Source: a virus
Length of the DNA stretch: 17,593 bases
Direction: 5' to 3' (one strand)
UHGV virus genome: UHGV-1834291
In this document: piece after piece, positions 10,007 through 15,748 of the stretch
How positions within the stretch are numbered: the first letter of the stretch is position 1
How the letters are laid out: each line of letters opens with the position of its first letter
Translations under genes and position numbers: made by a program
The notes under the pieces: model-generated
What the model saw: the letters and a program-made list of their open reading frames with translations, nothing else
Databases searched by the model: none
Told to the model about the DNA's origin: nothing

Positions 10007-10231
10007 ATGAATCAGACATACATTCCATCATGCTTGAGAAATCTGCCAAAGCAGAAAGCAAAGCCCCGCAAGCAAGCCATAAAGGACGCTAAGGCAGATG
10101 TTATTGATCAAGCAATACAATTGCTCAGGGAGGAGTTAAGAAGTGGCAAGCTCGAAGGAATGATGATGTCCTATCAGCGCGGATATCTATCGGCGATTAG
10201 TAAGTTGGAAGTATTGAAGAGTGAATTATGA
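10007..10231 (+). CDS. Hypothetical protein, 74 aa, basic N-terminus
   Basis: ATG 10007 (GTG 10004 possible) 3 nt after N stop, RBS GAGG; MNQTYIPSCLRNLPKQKAKPRKQAIKDAKADVIDQAIQLLREELRSGK...; no recognised motif. Confidence 0.45.
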   Translation: MNQTYIPSCLRNLPKQKAKPRKQAIKDAKADVIDQAIQLLREELRSGKLEGMMMSYQRGYLSAISKLEVLKSEL

Positions 10232-10288
10232 ACTATCTGGAATTTCCGGATGGTTCATTGTTTTGGCAGCAAGCCACAGAGGTGATAT

Positions 10289-10375
10289 ATGGAAGAAGAA
10301 TTTGAAGAGTTCGAAGAGCATCCGCAGGATGAGATGGAACAATACCAGGACTATCCGTATGACTACGACTATTGA
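10289..10375 (+). CDS. Candidate 28-aa highly acidic/aromatic peptide overlapping the ral start
   Basis: ATG 10289, MEEEFEEFEEHPQDEMEQYQDYPYDYDY, stop 10373-10375; 17-nt overlap with ral in another frame; could be non-coding. Confidence 0.3.
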   Translation: MEEEFEEFEEHPQDEMEQYQDYPYDYDY

Positions 10376-10559
10376 TAAGAATCAATGGTGTGGACAATTC
10401 AAGCGATGCAATGGATGCAAGCTGCAATCGGAATGCATGGTTAAGCCTGAAGAAATGTTTCCTGTAATGGAAGATGGGAAATATGTCGATAAATGGGCAA
10501 TACGAACGACGGCAATGATTGCCAGAGAACTTGGTAAACTGAACAACAAGGCTGCCTGA
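10359..10559 (+). CDS. ral: Ral restriction-alleviation protein
   Basis: Trimmed to ATG 10359: MTTTIDKNQWCGQFKRCNGCKLQSECMVKPEEMFPVMEDGKYVDKWAIRTTAMIARELGKLNNKAA (66 aa), near-identical to lambda Ral from memory. Confidence 0.9.
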   Translation: MTTTIDKNQWCGQFKRCNGCKLQSECMVKPEEMFPVMEDGKYVDKWAIRTTAMIARELGKLNNKAA

Positions 10560-10582
10560 TGGTGGCCTTTATTTTCTTATTT
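10548..10582 (+). terminator. Candidate intrinsic terminator immediately after ral
   Basis: aaggctgcc / ggtggcctt 9-bp stem (two G-U) with tgat loop containing the ral stop codon, followed by tattttcttattt. Confidence 0.5.
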
Positions 10583-10595
10583 GAGAGGAATTAAT

Positions 10596-11219
10596 ATGTC
10601 ATCAATCCGCTTAACTACGAGAATGAAAGAGGAAATCGCTCGTAACGCTTTAATTAAGTCTGGGGTTTTCACTGAGCTTGAAGAAGTAACAAAGTTAAAG
10701 AACCAGCTTGCACTTGACGCCAGAGTTATTGCGTTTGGCGGTAAAAAGAAAACTGAGGAAGTGGATCAGTTATCATCCAAGTTGGTAGCTATAAGTGAAG
10801 AACTTGGAAAGATGGGATGTTCATTTTACTCATACGATTTTCGTTCTACTTCAATTTATCTGACTGTATCTGGCAGAAGGGTTGGATGGCATTCATATGG
10901 AAAAGACGGCAACGGCGAAGATATATTGCTCCCTACTCCGACCAGAGATAAATGCATGTTTGACGCAGAACACGAAATAACAAAAAGGTTTGATGAAATC
11001 TGCGCATTGCAACAAAAACTTGAAGTCAAGAAAAAGGATATCGAATCAAATGTATGGGCTGCTTTGAACTCAGTCACAACAGTTAAGCGACTCATTGAAG
11101 TTTGGCCTGAAAGCAAAGAATTGCTACCAAAAGAAGCAGATAAAGCAAGTACAGCACTTCCTGCTTTACGGGTAGAGGATTTGAATAAGATGATTGGACT
11201 TCCTTCCGAGGCCGCATAG
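10596..11219 (+). CDS. Hypothetical soluble protein, 207 aa; unknown function
   Basis: ATG 10596 with RBS GAGAGGA; MSSIRLTTRMKEEIARNALIKSGVFTELEEVTKLKNQLALD...; no TM segments or recognised catalytic motif; bracketed by terminators; occupies the slot where lambda/P22 carry sieB. Confidence 0.6.
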   Translation: MSSIRLTTRMKEEIARNALIKSGVFTELEEVTKLKNQLALDARVIAFGGKKKTEEVDQLSSKLVAISEELGKMGCSFYSYDFRSTSIYLTVSGRRVGWHSYGKDGNGEDILLPTPTRDKCMFDAEHEITKRFDEICALQQKLEVKKKDIESNVWAALNSVTTVKRLIEVWPESKELLPKEADKASTALPALRVEDLNKMIGLPSEAA

Positions 11220-11291: not shown

Positions 11292-11351
11292 GGAGCAATG
11301 TCGCTCGTAACTAAACAGGAGCCGACTTGTTCTGATTATTGGAAATCTTCT

Positions 11352-11380
11352 TTGCCCTCCAGTGTGAGGGCAATTTTTTT
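11352..11380 (+). terminator. Strong intrinsic terminator 12 nt upstream of the 322-aa gene start
   Basis: Perfect 8-bp stem ttgccctc / gagggcaa, 6-nt loop, then T7 (11374-11380); RBS GGAGG and ATG 11393 follow directly. Confidence 0.8.
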
Positions 11381-11392
11381 GACGGAGGATAT

Positions 11393-12361
11393 ATGAGTGA
11401 AGTAACAGATTTAGTTGTTATTGAAAAAGCAAATGCAATGACTGTATTTCAGTCTGCAGACCAGATTGAAGAAATCCTTCAAAAGGTTGAACGTGAAGTT
11501 ATGTCCTTTGTGCCTGATATCACAACGGCAAAGGGCAGAAAGGAGATCGCTTCTCTGGCGTATAAAGTTGCGCAGACGAAAACATATCTCGATGGTCTTG
11601 GCAAAGACCTTGTTGCTGAACTGAAGGAAATTCCAAAGCTAATTGATGCCAACCGCAAGACAGTGCGTGATCGCCTTGATGAGCTGAAAGCCAAGGCGCG
11701 CCAGCCTCTTACTGATTATGAGGAGGAACAGGCACGGATTAAAGCCGAAGAAGAAGCTAAGGCAGCAGCTGAAGCTCTCGCAAAGCAAATTGAGTCTGAC
11801 CATGAAATAGCGATTTTGATGGATCGCGAATTTGACCGCCAAAGAGAAGAGGCAAGACTCAAAGCGGAGCGGGAAAAGCGAGAGCATGAAGAACGCTTAA
11901 AAAGAGAAGCTGAAGAGAGAGCCAGAGCAGAAGCCGAAGCAAAGGCAAAAGCCGAAATTGAAGCAGCAGCAAGGCGAGAAGCAGAAGCTAAGGCCGCAGC
12001 GGAACGTGCAGAGCGTGAACGCATTGAAGCCGAGCAACGAGCACAGCGCGAAGCAAAAGAGGCAGCAGAACGAGCTGAAAGAGAAAAGCAGGCGGCAATT
12101 GAAGCAGAACGCCGAAAAGCACAGGAGGAGGCTGAACGAATCCGGCGCGAGGCTGAAGCAAAAGAGCAAGCCAGAATAGCAGAAGAAAAAAGAATCAAGG
12201 AAGAAGAAGAGCGTAGAGCAAAGGATAAAGCTCACCGGAAAGAAGTAAATAACAAAATACTTGCTGACCTTATCAAGGTTGGCGCATCAGAAGATGTTGC
12301 TAAAAATATCATAACAGCTATCGTAAAAGGCGAAGTATTCGCAACAAAAATAACCTACTAA
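11393..12361 (+). CDS. Hypothetical protein, 322 aa, with ~160-aa E/R/K/A-rich predicted single alpha-helix / coiled-coil domain
   Basis: ATG 11393 after RBS GGAGG; globular N-terminal ~120 aa (MSEVTDLVVIEKANAMTVFQSADQIEE...), then repeats of EAEAKAKAEIEAAARREAEAKAAAERAERE..., short C-terminal domain ...IITAIVKGEVFATKITY. Confidence 0.7.
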   Translation: MSEVTDLVVIEKANAMTVFQSADQIEEILQKVEREVMSFVPDITTAKGRKEIASLAYKVAQTKTYLDGLGKDLVAELKEIPKLIDANRKTVRDRLDELKAKARQPLTDYEEEQARIKAEEEAKAAAEALAKQIESDHEIAILMDREFDRQREEARLKAEREKREHEERLKREAEERARAEAEAKAKAEIEAAARREAEAKAAAERAERERIEAEQRAQREAKEAAERAEREKQAAIEAERRKAQEEAERIRREAEAKEQARIAEEKRIKEEEERRAKDKAHRKEVNNKILADLIKVGASEDVAKNIITAIVKGEVFATKITY

Positions 12362-12729: not shown

Positions 12730-12900
12730 ATGTCACTTGCAACCACAGTGAAGGAGAGCAAGTTACAGAGACGCATGTACACGCAGAAAGCTCTCTGGTA
12801 TCGCCATAATGGTGACCGCGAAGGAATGCGGGTATGCCTTAATTTGTCCCGAGTTGAAGTATTAAATCAGCGTTATTTCCTTGGGCCGTGTCCATTCTGA
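12730..12900 (+). CDS. Small ORF (56 aa) immediately upstream of erf (P22 arf position)
   Basis: ATG 12730 with strong RBS AAGGAGA 5 nt upstream; MSLATTVKESKLQRRMYTQKALWYRHNGDREGMRVCLNLSRVEVLNQRYFLGPCPF; ends 10 nt before erf ATG. Confidence 0.35.
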   Translation: MSLATTVKESKLQRRMYTQKALWYRHNGDREGMRVCLNLSRVEVLNQRYFLGPCPF

Positions 12901-12910
12901 GAACAATCAT

Positions 12911-13516
12911 ATGAGCAAAGAATTTTACGCAAGACTGGCAGCTATTCAGGAGAATCTGAACGCGCCAAAGAATCAGTACAACTCATTCGGCAAATATAAA
13001 TACAGAAGCTGCGAAGACATTCTTGAAGGCGTTAAGCCGTTACTGAATGGCCTGTTTTTATCAATCAGCGATGAAGTTGTGTTGATTGGTGATCGGTATT
13101 ACGTGAAAGCCACAGCAACTATTACCGATGGCGAAAACAGTCATACAGCAATCGCTCTTGCACGAGAGGAAGAAAGCAAGAAAGGAATGGATTCTGCACA
13201 AGTTACGGGAGCTACAAGCTCTTATGCACGCAAGTATTGCCTCAATGGTTTGTTCGGCATTGATGATGCGAAAGATGCAGATACAGACGAGCATAAACAT
13301 CAGCAGAACGCAGCAGCAAAGCAATCAAAACCATCACCTACACCTGAACAGGTTCTAAAAGCATTCACTGACGCAGCAATGCAGAAAAACACCGTAGAAG
13401 AGCTTAAACAGGCGTTCGCCAAAGCGTGGAAGATGCTCGAAGGCACACCGGAGCAGCACAAAGCGCAGGACGTTTACAACATCAGACGAGATGAATTAGA
13501 AGGAGCGGCTGCTTAA
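12911..13516 (+). CDS. erf: Erf single-strand annealing recombinase (P22 Erf-like)
   Basis: Trimmed to ATG 12911: MSKEFYARLAAIQENLNAPKNQYNSFGKYKYRSCEDILEGVKPLLNGLFLSISDEVVLIGDRYYVKATATITDGENSH..., matching the P22 Erf N-terminal domain from memory; C-terminal domain divergent. Confidence 0.9.
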   Translation: MSKEFYARLAAIQENLNAPKNQYNSFGKYKYRSCEDILEGVKPLLNGLFLSISDEVVLIGDRYYVKATATITDGENSHTAIALAREEESKKGMDSAQVTGATSSYARKYCLNGLFGIDDAKDADTDEHKHQQNAAAKQSKPSPTPEQVLKAFTDAAMQKNTVEELKQAFAKAWKMLEGTPEQHKAQDVYNIRRDELEGAAA

Positions 13517-13899
13517 TGGCACATTCGATTACTGTAAGACTAAACAAGCCCGTAAGAGAGTTTCAGGCCGGGGAAAATATCGGATTCAACATCCGTGCTG
13601 GCGTTCAGTATTACGATCGCCAGACAAAAAAGAAAGAATGGACAAACTACAGCGCCGTTGTATTTGCCAAGCCGGGAGCGCAAGCGGATTACTACCGTAG
13701 TGTTCTTGTTGAAGGTGGCATTGTGGAAATTACCGGAGAAAACATCAGGGTTGATGTTTATCAGGGGCAAAATGGTCAATCAATCACTCTTGAATTACTG
13801 AATGCAAAGATTGGATTTGCAGCTTCAGGAAATGGCCCGCAGCAGCAAAGTAGTAACCAGCAGAACACTCCTGTATACGACGATTCCATCCCATTCTGA
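13516..13899 (+). CDS. SSB-like single-stranded DNA-binding protein (short form with acidic C-terminal tip)
   Basis: 127 aa; OB-fold-like core, Gln/Ser-rich linker, C-terminal DDSIPF resembling the SSB tail DDDIPF; ATG overlaps erf stop (TAATG). Confidence 0.7.
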   Translation: MAHSITVRLNKPVREFQAGENIGFNIRAGVQYYDRQTKKKEWTNYSAVVFAKPGAQADYYRSVLVEGGIVEITGENIRVDVYQGQNGQSITLELLNAKIGFAASGNGPQQQSSNQQNTPVYDDSIPF

Positions 13900-13922
13900 T
13901 TTAGAAAAATAAGGGTTCCATT

Positions 13923-14219
13923 ATGCCAGCGCCTCTGTATGGTGCGGATGACCCGCGCCGCTGTTCCGGCAATTCCGTATCGGAGGTGCTGGAAAGTATC
14001 AAGAATAATCTCGGCGCGTTTCTTGCTCTGCCACCAGAAACAAAAGCAGAACGGAAGTACCGACGCGATATACAACTCGCAGAAAAACAGGAAAAAGACC
14101 GAATAAACGAAACATCAATCCGACCATTCCGCAAAGCCACATATACCCACTTCCCTGAATATATCGACCCGCGCCTGCGTAATTACCGCTCACGCTATGG
14201 CGCTATCAGTAATGACTGA
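13923..14219 (+). CDS. Hypothetical protein, 98 aa
   Basis: ATG 13923, RBS AAGGG; [52 protein letters not shown]...; no recognised motif. Confidence 0.45.
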
Positions 14220-14229
14220 GGAATTTACC

Positions 14230-14397
14230 ATGAGAGGACTTGCATACAATCCCGGCATTCTTCCGGCAGAAATGATTATTCGCCAACGCGTAAAGCCAAT
14301 GCCATCGAGAGAGGAATTGCTTAAGAGAAATTCTTTTCCTTCAGTGAATCAAAACAAATATCTGAATGCGATGTGGCGTAAAGGAGGCAAGCAGTGA
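14230..14397 (+). CDS. Hypothetical protein, 55 aa
   Basis: ATG 14230 with RBS GAGGA 7 nt upstream (in-frame ATGs at 14197 and 14212 lack an RBS); [55 protein letters not shown]. Confidence 0.35.
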
Positions 14398-14693
14398 GTG
14401 TATATCTTATTGATAAACGTCGACGTGGGCAACAAATACCACCTGTAGGAATTCCGAATCACACATGGTTTTGCGTACTTGATATCGATGGTATGGATGC
14501 GTTGGTTGACACTCGTCATTACTGCGATACCGCAACAGCTACTCCGGCGAAAGCAAAGAAAATGGCTGCTCTGATAGAAAACTGGACTCCACCTGATGGT
14601 TGGTGCAATGGGAATGATCGAGATTGGCATGAAAAAATGAAGGGCTATATCTGCGATTTCTTACGTAAATGCAACGGATTCAGGGTGATGTGA
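14394..14693 (+). CDS. Hypothetical Cys/His-rich protein, 99 aa (possible metal-binding)
   Basis: GTG start 14394 with RBS AGGAGG 6 nt upstream, overlapping the previous stop (GTGA); Cys/His clusters [33 protein letters not shown]. Confidence 0.5.
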
Positions 14694-14694
14694 C

Positions 14695-15471
14695 ATGAAC
14701 AAGATTGACTATCAGGCACTGCGTGCCAAGGCAGAAAAAGCAACGTGTGGTGAGTGGTCGCTCGAATATGGAGATGGCCGATTTGATGGTGATGATGCAC
14801 TAATTCATCGTGAAGTTGCTGGATATATTCCCATTTGCAGAATTGAAGGAGCGCATCCAGAAAGCGGTTTCGATGAAGATTTCCAAATGGAACAGCAGGC
14901 CAATGCTGAATTCATCGCCGCAGCCAATCCGGCTACCGTCTTGGCGCTGCTGGATGAGCTGGAAAGAAAACAGCAATACATCAAACGCCGCGACCAGGAG
15001 AACGAGGATATTGCGCTAACAGTAGGGAAACTGCGTGTTGAGCTTGAAACAGCAAAATCAAAACTCAACGAGCAGCGTGAATATTACGAGGGAGTAATCG
15101 TGGATGTGAGTAAGCGCATAGCAGAACTGGAAGCCGAACCTGTAAGCCAGGCTTACAAGTTGAACGCGCTGGCTGGCAACTCTCCGGTAACTCCAGATGG
15201 TTGGATAAGCTGTAGTGAGCGAATGCCTGTAATTGGCGAGCTAAATTGGAGAACTAGTTTTCCTTTACTGGTTACGTGTGAGATCGGCGTTATACCTGCT
15301 TATTACGGCTTTGTGAGAGTTAATGGGAATAAGCATTATGGTTTTATGGAGAGTCTTAAATATGGAGATGGTAGCGGCAACCATCCTCAAACTAATGAAT
15401 ATGACCTGATTAGCAATGTCACACACTGGATGCCTCTACCAGAACCGCCTCAGGAGGTTAACCGTGGCTAA
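14695..15471 (+). CDS. Phage protein with coiled-coil N-region and C-terminal DUF551-like domain (Ead/Ea22-like architecture)
   Basis: 258 aa; central heptad-rich segment; C-terminal DGWISCSERMPV...THWMPLPEPP resembles the DUF551 hallmark as I recall it; ATG 14695 one nt after previous stop. Confidence 0.65.
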   Translation: MNKIDYQALRAKAEKATCGEWSLEYGDGRFDGDDALIHREVAGYIPICRIEGAHPESGFDEDFQMEQQANAEFIAAANPATVLALLDELERKQQYIKRRDQENEDIALTVGKLRVELETAKSKLNEQREYYEGVIVDVSKRIAELEAEPVSQAYKLNALAGNSPVTPDGWISCSERMPVIGELNWRTSFPLLVTCEIGVIPAYYGFVRVNGNKHYGFMESLKYGDGSGNHPQTNEYDLISNVTHWMPLPEPPQEVNRG

Positions 15472-15748
15472 TCTGCAACTTGCCGTTAAAGGTGAATACT
15501 TCGATGCCATGATTCGCGGAGAGAAAACGGAAGAGTATCGCCTGTTTAATGACTACTGGAATAAGCGCCTCGTTAACCGTAAGTATGACCGCCTGATTAT
15601 CACAAAGGGATATCCGAAGCGCGACGATTCCAGCCGCAGAATTGATGTTCCGTATGACGGCTATGAAATAAAGACAATCACACATCCCCACTTCGGCGAT
15701 AAACCGGTAAAGGTGTACGCGATAAAGGTGAATATCGGCAATGAATAA
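15464..15748 (+). CDS. ASCH-like domain protein, 94 aa
   Basis: GTG 15464 with RBS AGGAGG 6 nt upstream, overlapping previous gene end; GEKTEEYR fits the ASCH GxKxxExR signature. Confidence 0.55.
   Translation: MANLQLAVKGEYFDAMIRGEKTEEYRLFNDYWNKRLVNRKYDRLIITKGYPKRDDSSRRIDVPYDGYEIKTITHPHFGDKPVKVYAIKVNIGNE

Follow-up and report, generated by a model that had tools for sequence, protein, structure and literature searches.

The window described here is the whole 17,593-nucleotide (nt) stretch of the virus genome UHGV-1834291 that was analysed, and the subject of this report is a run of three small open reading frames (ORFs) on its plus strand, called ORF1, ORF2 and ORF3 in the text that follows (Table 1). 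A preliminary description, made from the letters of the window, had presented the three as closely spaced ORFs of unrecognizable sequence, lying downstream of genes for an Erf protein and a single-strand DNA-binding protein (SSB), and had suggested that they might be analogues of the small Abc anti-RecBCD proteins of phage P22 or other anti-defence cargo. The positions of the ORFs, the possession of a Shine-Dalgarno sequence by each of them and the GTGA stop/start overlap between ORF2 and ORF3 at 14394-14397 are as reported there, but the sequences are not beyond recognition, since all three fall in named families (PF11043, PF10930 and PF24881, respectively). We consider it very probable that they are three consecutive early-left (PL) genes of a P22-like or lambdoid prophage, encoding in this order the anti-RecBCD protein Abc2, a recombination-module accessory protein of the DUF2737 family and an accessory protein of the DUF7739 family.

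The three ORFs are real genes and not chance reading frames, because each matches one Pfam and one PHROG family over its full length, because the pairwise ratios of nonsynonymous to synonymous substitution (dN/dS) against related loci are 0.53 for ORF1, 0.31 for ORF2 (45 distinct sequences) and 0.43 for ORF3, and because the same three genes are annotated by RefSeq in E. coli chromosomes; the coding character ascribed to them at the outset is thus borne out. Direct reading of the sequence places 10 nt between ORF1 and ORF2, with the Shine-Dalgarno sequence of ORF2 overlapping the TGA stop codon of ORF1 (14217-14219). A longer version of ORF2, of 66 amino acids (aa), can be drawn from an ATG at 14197, but the PF10930 alignment starts with the Met of the shorter, 55-aa version. 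The gene that follows ORF3 begins (at 14695) 1 nt past the ORF3 stop codon. No promoter-like and no terminator-like site was found on the plus strand between 13052 and 15754, which fits a single transcription unit.

ORF1 matches the profile PF11043, "Bacteriophage P22 anti-RecBCD protein 2", with an E value of 1.5e-42 and 144.2 bits (cut-off 25), its residues 1-98 aligning to profile positions 1-97 of 97, and it matches phrog_656 ("abc2 anti-RecBCD") at E 1.9e-48. In a comparison with the chain of P22 Abc2 in the structures PDB 8B1T/8B1U (8b1t_A), residues 1-98 again align on 1-97 (E 7e-39). The two proteins are identical at 66 of 98 positions, or at 69% as scored by tblastn, identity being complete in the N-terminal segment (23/23), much lower in the central helix (16/40) and high again in the C-terminal segment (27/35); Pro68 is kept in ORF1, within an IRPFRK motif. 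The equivalent gene is called "phage anti-RecBCD protein" by RefSeq, and the position of ORF1 in the order kil, arf-like gene, erf, SSB-like gene, abc2 agrees with the early-left order in phages P22, HK97, ES18 and Sf6. By every sequence-level criterion ORF1 is a true orthologue of Abc2, rather than an analogue of it.

P22 Abc2 (97 aa) and ORF1 (98 aa) are alike in their end-to-end alignment, in following a strand-annealing gene and in being followed by the same small gene; they differ in that P22 has abc1 upstream where the window has an SSB-like gene, and in their hosts, which are Salmonella for P22 and E. coli/Shigella for the window. Abc1 is the classical partner of Abc2 and is encoded just 5' of abc2 in P22, whereas the gene in this slot of the window is SSB-like, as in HK620, whose protein from the "abc1" slot has been shown to be an SSB (PMC5928155). 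A tblastn search with P22 Abc1 (L002:1866-2150) found nothing in the window at E 1e-4, yet matched other loci. The suggestion of Abc-type anti-RecBCD proteins at this locus therefore holds for ORF1, which is the Abc2 homologue itself, and fails for ORF2 and ORF3, neither of which has homology to Abc1, Abc2 or Gam. The PADLOC defence models gave no match for ORF1-3 or their neighbours, and NCBIfam has no model for any of the three.

Abc2 of P22 binds RecC, recruits the host protein PpiB and leaves the RecBCD helicase uninhibited; Pro68 of Abc2 was seen by cryo-electron microscopy to occupy the active site of PpiB, which no longer co-purifies when Abc2 carries the P68A substitution (PMC9836394). 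The DNA mimics Gam of phage lambda and gp5.9 of T7 serve the same purpose of neutralizing RecBCD but are unrelated to Abc2 in sequence and mechanism, as they obstruct the site at which the enzyme binds DNA and shut down all of its activities (PMC9836394). By homology, the product of ORF1 would offer its own Pro68 to PpiB, the prolyl isomerase of the host, and would let the RecBCD helicase continue to work but prevent the enzyme from responding to Chi; the ends of the phage DNA would thereby be protected, and the resected DNA would be handed to the phage Erf and SSB proteins and not to RecA. ORF1-3 would be co-transcribed in an N-antiterminated PL operon that includes a recombination module of the "HK75" functional type, which is defined by Erf, SSB and an anti-RecBCD function, without a nuclease (PMC12315714). 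DUF2737 would be made in step with Abc2, the 10-nt junction between their genes being typical of translational coupling. The Chi site (GCTGGTGG) is absent from both strands of the whole window, a result that is uninformative alone (0.43 sites would be expected by chance). Chi is reportedly scarce in lambdoid phages with anti-RecBCD function, and the count of zero in the window agrees with this.

Table 1. Genes and sites of the early-left region discussed in the text (positions in the window)
Feature	Position	Strand	Remarks
ORF1, abc2	13923-14219	+	ATG start, 98 aa; AAGGG 7 nt before start
abc2 stop/DUF2737 start junction	14217-14232	+	TGA then GGAA, forming the GAGGA Shine-Dalgarno; 7-nt spacer; ATG
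ORF2, DUF2737 gene	14230-14397	+	ATG start, 55 aa; GAGGA Shine-Dalgarno
ORF3, DUF7739 gene	14394-14693	+	GTG start, 99 aa; AAAGGAGG 6 nt 5' of GTG
erf, single-strand annealing protein	12881-13516	+	PF04404 ERF, E 7.8e-44
Atypical SSB-like protein, 127 aa	13516-13899	+	phrog_44 "single strand DNA binding protein", E 3.3e-27
Ead/Ea22-like protein with C-terminal DUF551	14695-15471	+	PF13935, E 1.6e-37; PF04448, E 7.2e-12
ORF after the Ead/Ea22-DUF551 gene	15416-15748	+	overlaps the Ead/Ea22-DUF551 gene by 56 nt as listed
Ral, anti-restriction	10221-10559	+	listed as 112 aa; match spans residues 47-112 only
Nmad5, "nucleotide modification associated" protein	10581-11219	+	PF18757, E 7.6e-71
Long coiled-coil protein	11339-12361	+	~320 aa, rich in Glu, Ala, Lys and Arg; phrog_1376, no Pfam match

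ORF2 is a full-length member of the DUF2737 family (PF10930, E 1.6e-31, 108.4 bits, cut-off 25, profile positions 1-51 of 53; phrog_1117, E 1.3e-37). It is 100% identical to gp23 of Sf6 and 77% identical to ORF56 of P22, occupies the same post-abc2 slot as these two proteins, HkaI of HK620 and the gp38-region protein of HK97, and contains all of the residues that are invariant in the family (P23, R27, E29, R33, S35, F36, N42, Y44 and L45). Nothing distinguishes it from other DUF2737 members, among which those of the Guernseyvirinae share only the C-terminal P-x-P-[ST]...NKYLN core. The protein is very basic (isoelectric point [pI] 11, charge +7.5 at pH 7) and has no relative in the PDB by sequence search, and a search with the DUF2737 profile returned 670 small proteins and no informative fusion. 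In some of the database proteins (P0047 and P0049) an internal segment is duplicated in tandem. Fusions of DUF2737 with DUF7739, or of Abc2 with DUF7739, occur in a few singleton calls from assemblies (P0004, P0006, P0007 and P0018); they are probably the products of frameshifts or deletions, and such rare singletons were not trusted as informative fusions. A literature search found DUF2737 and DUF7739 named in one phage-annotation paper only, and there is no DUF2737 entry in the accessible portion of the supplements to an accessory-gene screen (Silas et al. preprint), nor any mention of the DUF2737 gene in the searchable part of the literature on these recombination modules.

The linkage between abc2 and the DUF2737 gene was followed through ~95 distinct loci, with Abc2 identities down to 33%, and through 49 closer, partly overlapping loci; the counts cover part of a wider pool of roughly 225 Abc2-positive phage records plus IMG/VR hits. 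Eighty IMG/VR loci with Abc2 identities of 80-99% were among the matches listed for ORF1, and DUF2737 lies just downstream of abc2 in every one of them, at a distance of 10 nt in 73 and behind an inserted gene of ~290 nt, DUF5405/Sf6-gp24-like, in the other 7, while the genes upstream of the pair (Erf plus SSB-like, Erf plus Abc1, and others) and those downstream of it vary. A scan of species-representative genomes yielded full-length DUF2737 just 3' of abc2 in 5/5 loci. The arrangement extends to an Enterobacter locus in which the identities have fallen to 33% for Abc2 and 53% for DUF2737, to 4 of 4 examined loci of the divergent Abc2 subtype that this locus represents, to the siphovirus Flyfo from bat faeces (Abc2 35% identical), where the DUF2737 ORF downstream is unannotated, and to P22, Sf6, ES18, epsilon34 and HK97, the last of these with a minimal early-left operon. 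Wherever the two genes abut, the junction consists of a TGA or TAA stop codon, GGA(A/G) and 10 nt from stop to ATG, and it is constant even at 33% Abc2 identity; the 10-nt stop/Shine-Dalgarno form is present in P22, HK97 and epsilon34 as well as in loci L096, L098 and L101, whose Abc2 proteins are at that level of identity.

The gene that can separate the two, which encodes a DUF5405-like protein of ~95 aa and does not occur in the window, is a facultative insert located exactly between abc2 and DUF2737. We found it in locus L003 (2050-2340, gp24 of Sf6), in L182 (1805-2092, gp45 of ES18), in L099, L100 and L097 and in the above-mentioned 7 of the 80 loci L008-L087, and it turns up again at this site in lineages whose Abc2 is only 33-35% identical.

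The linkage is one-directional: in the loci examined, abc2 is always accompanied by DUF2737, and DUF2737 is also found without abc2. When 80 loci were retrieved with DUF7739 instead, 49 contained both abc2 and DUF2737, 15 contained DUF2737 alone and 16 contained neither, whereas none contained abc2 alone. An obligate pair in the symmetric sense is ruled out by the loci that have only DUF2737. As judged from gene linkage, DUF2737 is most likely an accessory factor at the distal edge of lambdoid recombination modules, and its invariable company with Abc2 makes a RecBCD-related role possible, including a direct part in the hijack of the enzyme.

Several points weigh against the interpretation given here for ORF1 and ORF2. 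The Abc2 function of ORF1 is predicted from an identity of 67-69% to P22 Abc2, and the identity drops to 40% in the middle helix (residues 24-63). The RecBCD-Abc2-PpiB complex and the effects of Abc2 on RecBCD were obtained with Abc2 alone (PMC9836394; recombineering tests, PMC5928155), which implies that DUF2737 is not needed for the binding of Abc2. In the 15 of 80 DUF7739-centred loci that have DUF2737 without Abc2, the gene follows a module of RecT, Sipho_Gp157 and a 104-aa helix-turn-helix (HTH) protein, and a shorter DUF2737 is found among the nin-like small genes of virulent Guernseyvirinae (Jerseyvirus and Kagunavirus). Finally, the AlphaFold2 model of ORF2 is poor, with three short helices, a predicted local distance difference test (pLDDT) score of 62.8 and a predicted template modelling (pTM) score of 0.22, and is unfit for a fold search; such low confidence is what one would expect of a peptide that takes up its fold only in a complex, and ORF2 probably does fold only upon binding a partner.

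The RecT/Sipho_Gp157/104-aa module is represented by locus L107 (1117-3004) and 14 similar loci among L102-L181. The 104-aa protein has two Myb/SANT-like HTH repeats and in this recalls P22 Abc1, for which weak HTH/Myb matches are likewise obtained. A DUF2737 of the Jerseyvirus type was also encountered (L095) on a contig assigned to Taishania pollutisoli, a member of the Bacteroidota; this contig is most likely a contaminant from an enterobacterial phage.

The presence of DUF2737 behind RecT/Gp157 modules that lack Abc2, and in virulent Jerseyvirus and Kagunavirus phages, would be explained if it were an independent host-takeover peptide unrelated to RecBCD, whose constant place after abc2 reflects no more than a conserved position at the module's distal edge. 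We give this explanation somewhat less than an even chance. The loose correlation between the identities of the two proteins also speaks for it, as in loci where an 83% identical Abc2 accompanies a 100% identical DUF2737 or a 99% identical Abc2 accompanies a 91% identical DUF2737. It does not readily account for the failure to find a single examined Abc2 locus without DUF2737, even at 33-35% Abc2 identity or in the minimal operon of HK97, or for the conservation of the stop/Shine-Dalgarno junction in surroundings where the genes that flank abc2-DUF2737 vary freely. Because no Abc2 gene was found to lack DUF2737 down to 33% identity and because the junction is conserved, we also put forward, as a tentative and rather doubtful proposal, that DUF2737 might be an unrecognized partner with which Abc2, and in a wider sense the lambdoid recombination module, works, and that it is produced by translational coupling with Abc2. 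Such a partner could act on the RecBCD-Abc2-PpiB complex itself, or could offset a cost of disabling RecBCD, such as that imposed by host "guard" systems that sense its inhibition.

ORF3 belongs to the DUF7739 family (PF24881, E 4.1e-19, 69.4 bits, cut-off 27, profile positions 3-92 of 98; phrog_1239, E 2.6e-54). It is 99% identical to gp22, the gene 22 protein of Sf6, and contains all of the invariant family motifs (DKRR, TWF.VL.I, AKAKK, PP.GW and CNGF). It has the same length as the Sf6 protein and, like the genes for that protein and its homologues in CUS-3 and HK75, from which it shows no notable difference, is followed by an ead/Ea22-like gene. The family is small, with 73 clusters at 50% identity in a profile search of 1.84 billion representatives, and its full-length members are ~90-100 aa long and have no second domain. 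The AlphaFold2 model of ORF3 is confident (pLDDT 89.5, pTM 0.80) and predicts a compact alpha/beta protein. A sequence search found no relative of ORF3 in the PDB, and a Foldseek search of the PDB with the model gave nothing significant (best E 0.08), the closest folds being weak matches to DMP12, CdiI, YfbM and the N-domain of DapD; among viral models there was one marginal, unnamed match (E 5.6e-4). With a pI of 8.3 and a charge of +1.7 at pH 7, ORF3 is slightly basic and hence not a DNA mimic of the DMP12 kind.

The distribution of DUF7739 is unlike that of DUF2737, as it is present in only 3 of the 80 IMG/VR Abc2 loci among the matches listed, and relatives occur in quite different settings. 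In the BcepMu-like phage PhiKM (L004, 3001-3282) a relative is flanked by the tail tube and tail chaperone genes, and in phages of ~95 kb relatives lie near the gene for a giant virion protein, in both cases outside any recombination module; in the latter setting a 35% identical relative, from the Yersinia phage fHe-Yen8-01 (L007, 3001-3309), carries the depositor's label "particle associated protein". In an Edwardsiella phage DUF7739 adjoins rdgC-like genes. This distribution marks DUF7739 as a roaming single-gene cargo that moves among unrelated phage types, and we infer that ORF3 is most likely a dispensable accessory protein whose action depends on binding to another protein, has no part in the hijack of RecBCD and is not a metalloprotein.

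It is unlikely, in our judgement, that all three genes form a coordinated anti-RecBCD or anti-defence cassette in which ORF2 and ORF3 act beside ORF1. Such a cassette is difficult to reconcile with the scarcity of ORF3 in Abc2 loci and its presence in phages without Abc2, at sites unrelated to recombination, or with the occurrence of ORF2 apart from Abc2. The lack of a sequence relation of either protein to Abc1, Abc2 and Gam, the charge of ORF3 and the sub-threshold level of its fold matches point in the same direction.

A virion-associated role for DUF7739, as a packaged or assembly-related protein and not an early accessory factor, is brought to mind by the location of the PhiKM relative and by the label of the fHe-Yen8-01 relative, the gene for which lies near a 6.4-kb "ADP-ribosyltransferase toxin" gene (a giant particle-associated toxin). 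We regard this role as very unlikely for ORF3, since in the window and in all of its P22-like and lambdoid relatives the gene resides in the early-left operon, beside recombination and ea genes and far from the structural genes, and since "particle associated" is a depositor's annotation that a literature search could trace to no paper. The proposal that the Cys/His-rich ORF3 might bind a metal such as zinc is correct as to composition (5 Cys and 3 His in 99 residues) and has hardly any chance as to function, being contradicted by an alignment of 19 DUF7739 members (54-92% identical) in which Cys93 is the only invariant Cys, no His is invariant, and the remaining Cys residues are replaced (Cys27 by Lys, Thr or Glu, Cys44 by Asn, Cys70 by Val, Ile or Tyr, and Cys87 by Val or Ile).

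The locus is already known and annotated in public genomes, and neither ORF2 nor ORF3 stands out within its Pfam DUF; that a common E. coli prophage carries a RecBCD-hijacking Abc2 beside two catalogued DUF genes is a routine result of annotation. The only point that goes beyond annotation, and is modestly new, is that every abc2 gene in the examined loci has a DUF2737 gene behind it, with a conserved coupling junction, which makes ORF56 of P22 a candidate additional component of the classical recombination and anti-RecBCD module. To our knowledge, the decades of study of P22 recombination have dealt with arf, erf, abc1 and abc2 and have passed over ORF56. If DUF2737 were to modulate RecBCD, or to shield Abc2 phages from defences that guard RecBCD, it would be a new component for a textbook system and for recombineering toolkits.

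Pfam and PHROG scans place the lambdoid early-left operon on the plus strand from ~9.7 to 16.4 kb of the window, with the integrase encoded on the opposite strand. The order of genes is N, an unknown gene, Ral, the Nmad5 protein, a long coiled-coil protein, cIII, Kil, an Arf-like peptide, Erf, the 127-aa SSB-like protein, ORF1, ORF2, ORF3, Ead/Ea22-DUF551, two unknown genes and an AlpA/Xis-like gene. The earlier observation that Erf and SSB are present without Gam is confirmed by the family matches to the first two (Table 1) and by the lack of any match among the operon ORFs to the Lambda Gam, GamL or MuGam families in the same scans. The stop codon of erf overlaps the start codon of the next gene (TAATG, 13514-13518), and it is this SSB-like gene that fills the position held by abc1 in P22. 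Its 127-aa product has no Pfam match and no PDB relative by sequence search, and its relatives are annotated as oligonucleotide/oligosaccharide-binding (OB) fold or SSB proteins in ~320 Vibrio phage records. The C-terminus of the protein, ...YDDSIPF, resembles the DFDDDIPF tail of E. coli SSB, and the protein is probably an atypical phage SSB able to dock onto the host proteins that interact with SSB.

Two of the reading frames in Table 1 appear to have been listed with starts that lie too far upstream. The partial coverage of the Ral match suggests that the real start of ral is an internal Met codon near 10359, and the PHROG alignment of the ORF that overlaps the Ead/Ea22-DUF551 gene starts at residue 17, which puts its true start probably near 15464. 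The Ead/Ea22-like gene lies directly 3' of DUF7739 in most related loci. The region as a whole is a mosaic of sequences like those of Sf101, HK544, CUS-3 and APC_JM3.2, at ~96% identity, and DNA similar to 13516-15471 is present in 3179 of 5426 complete E. coli genomes.

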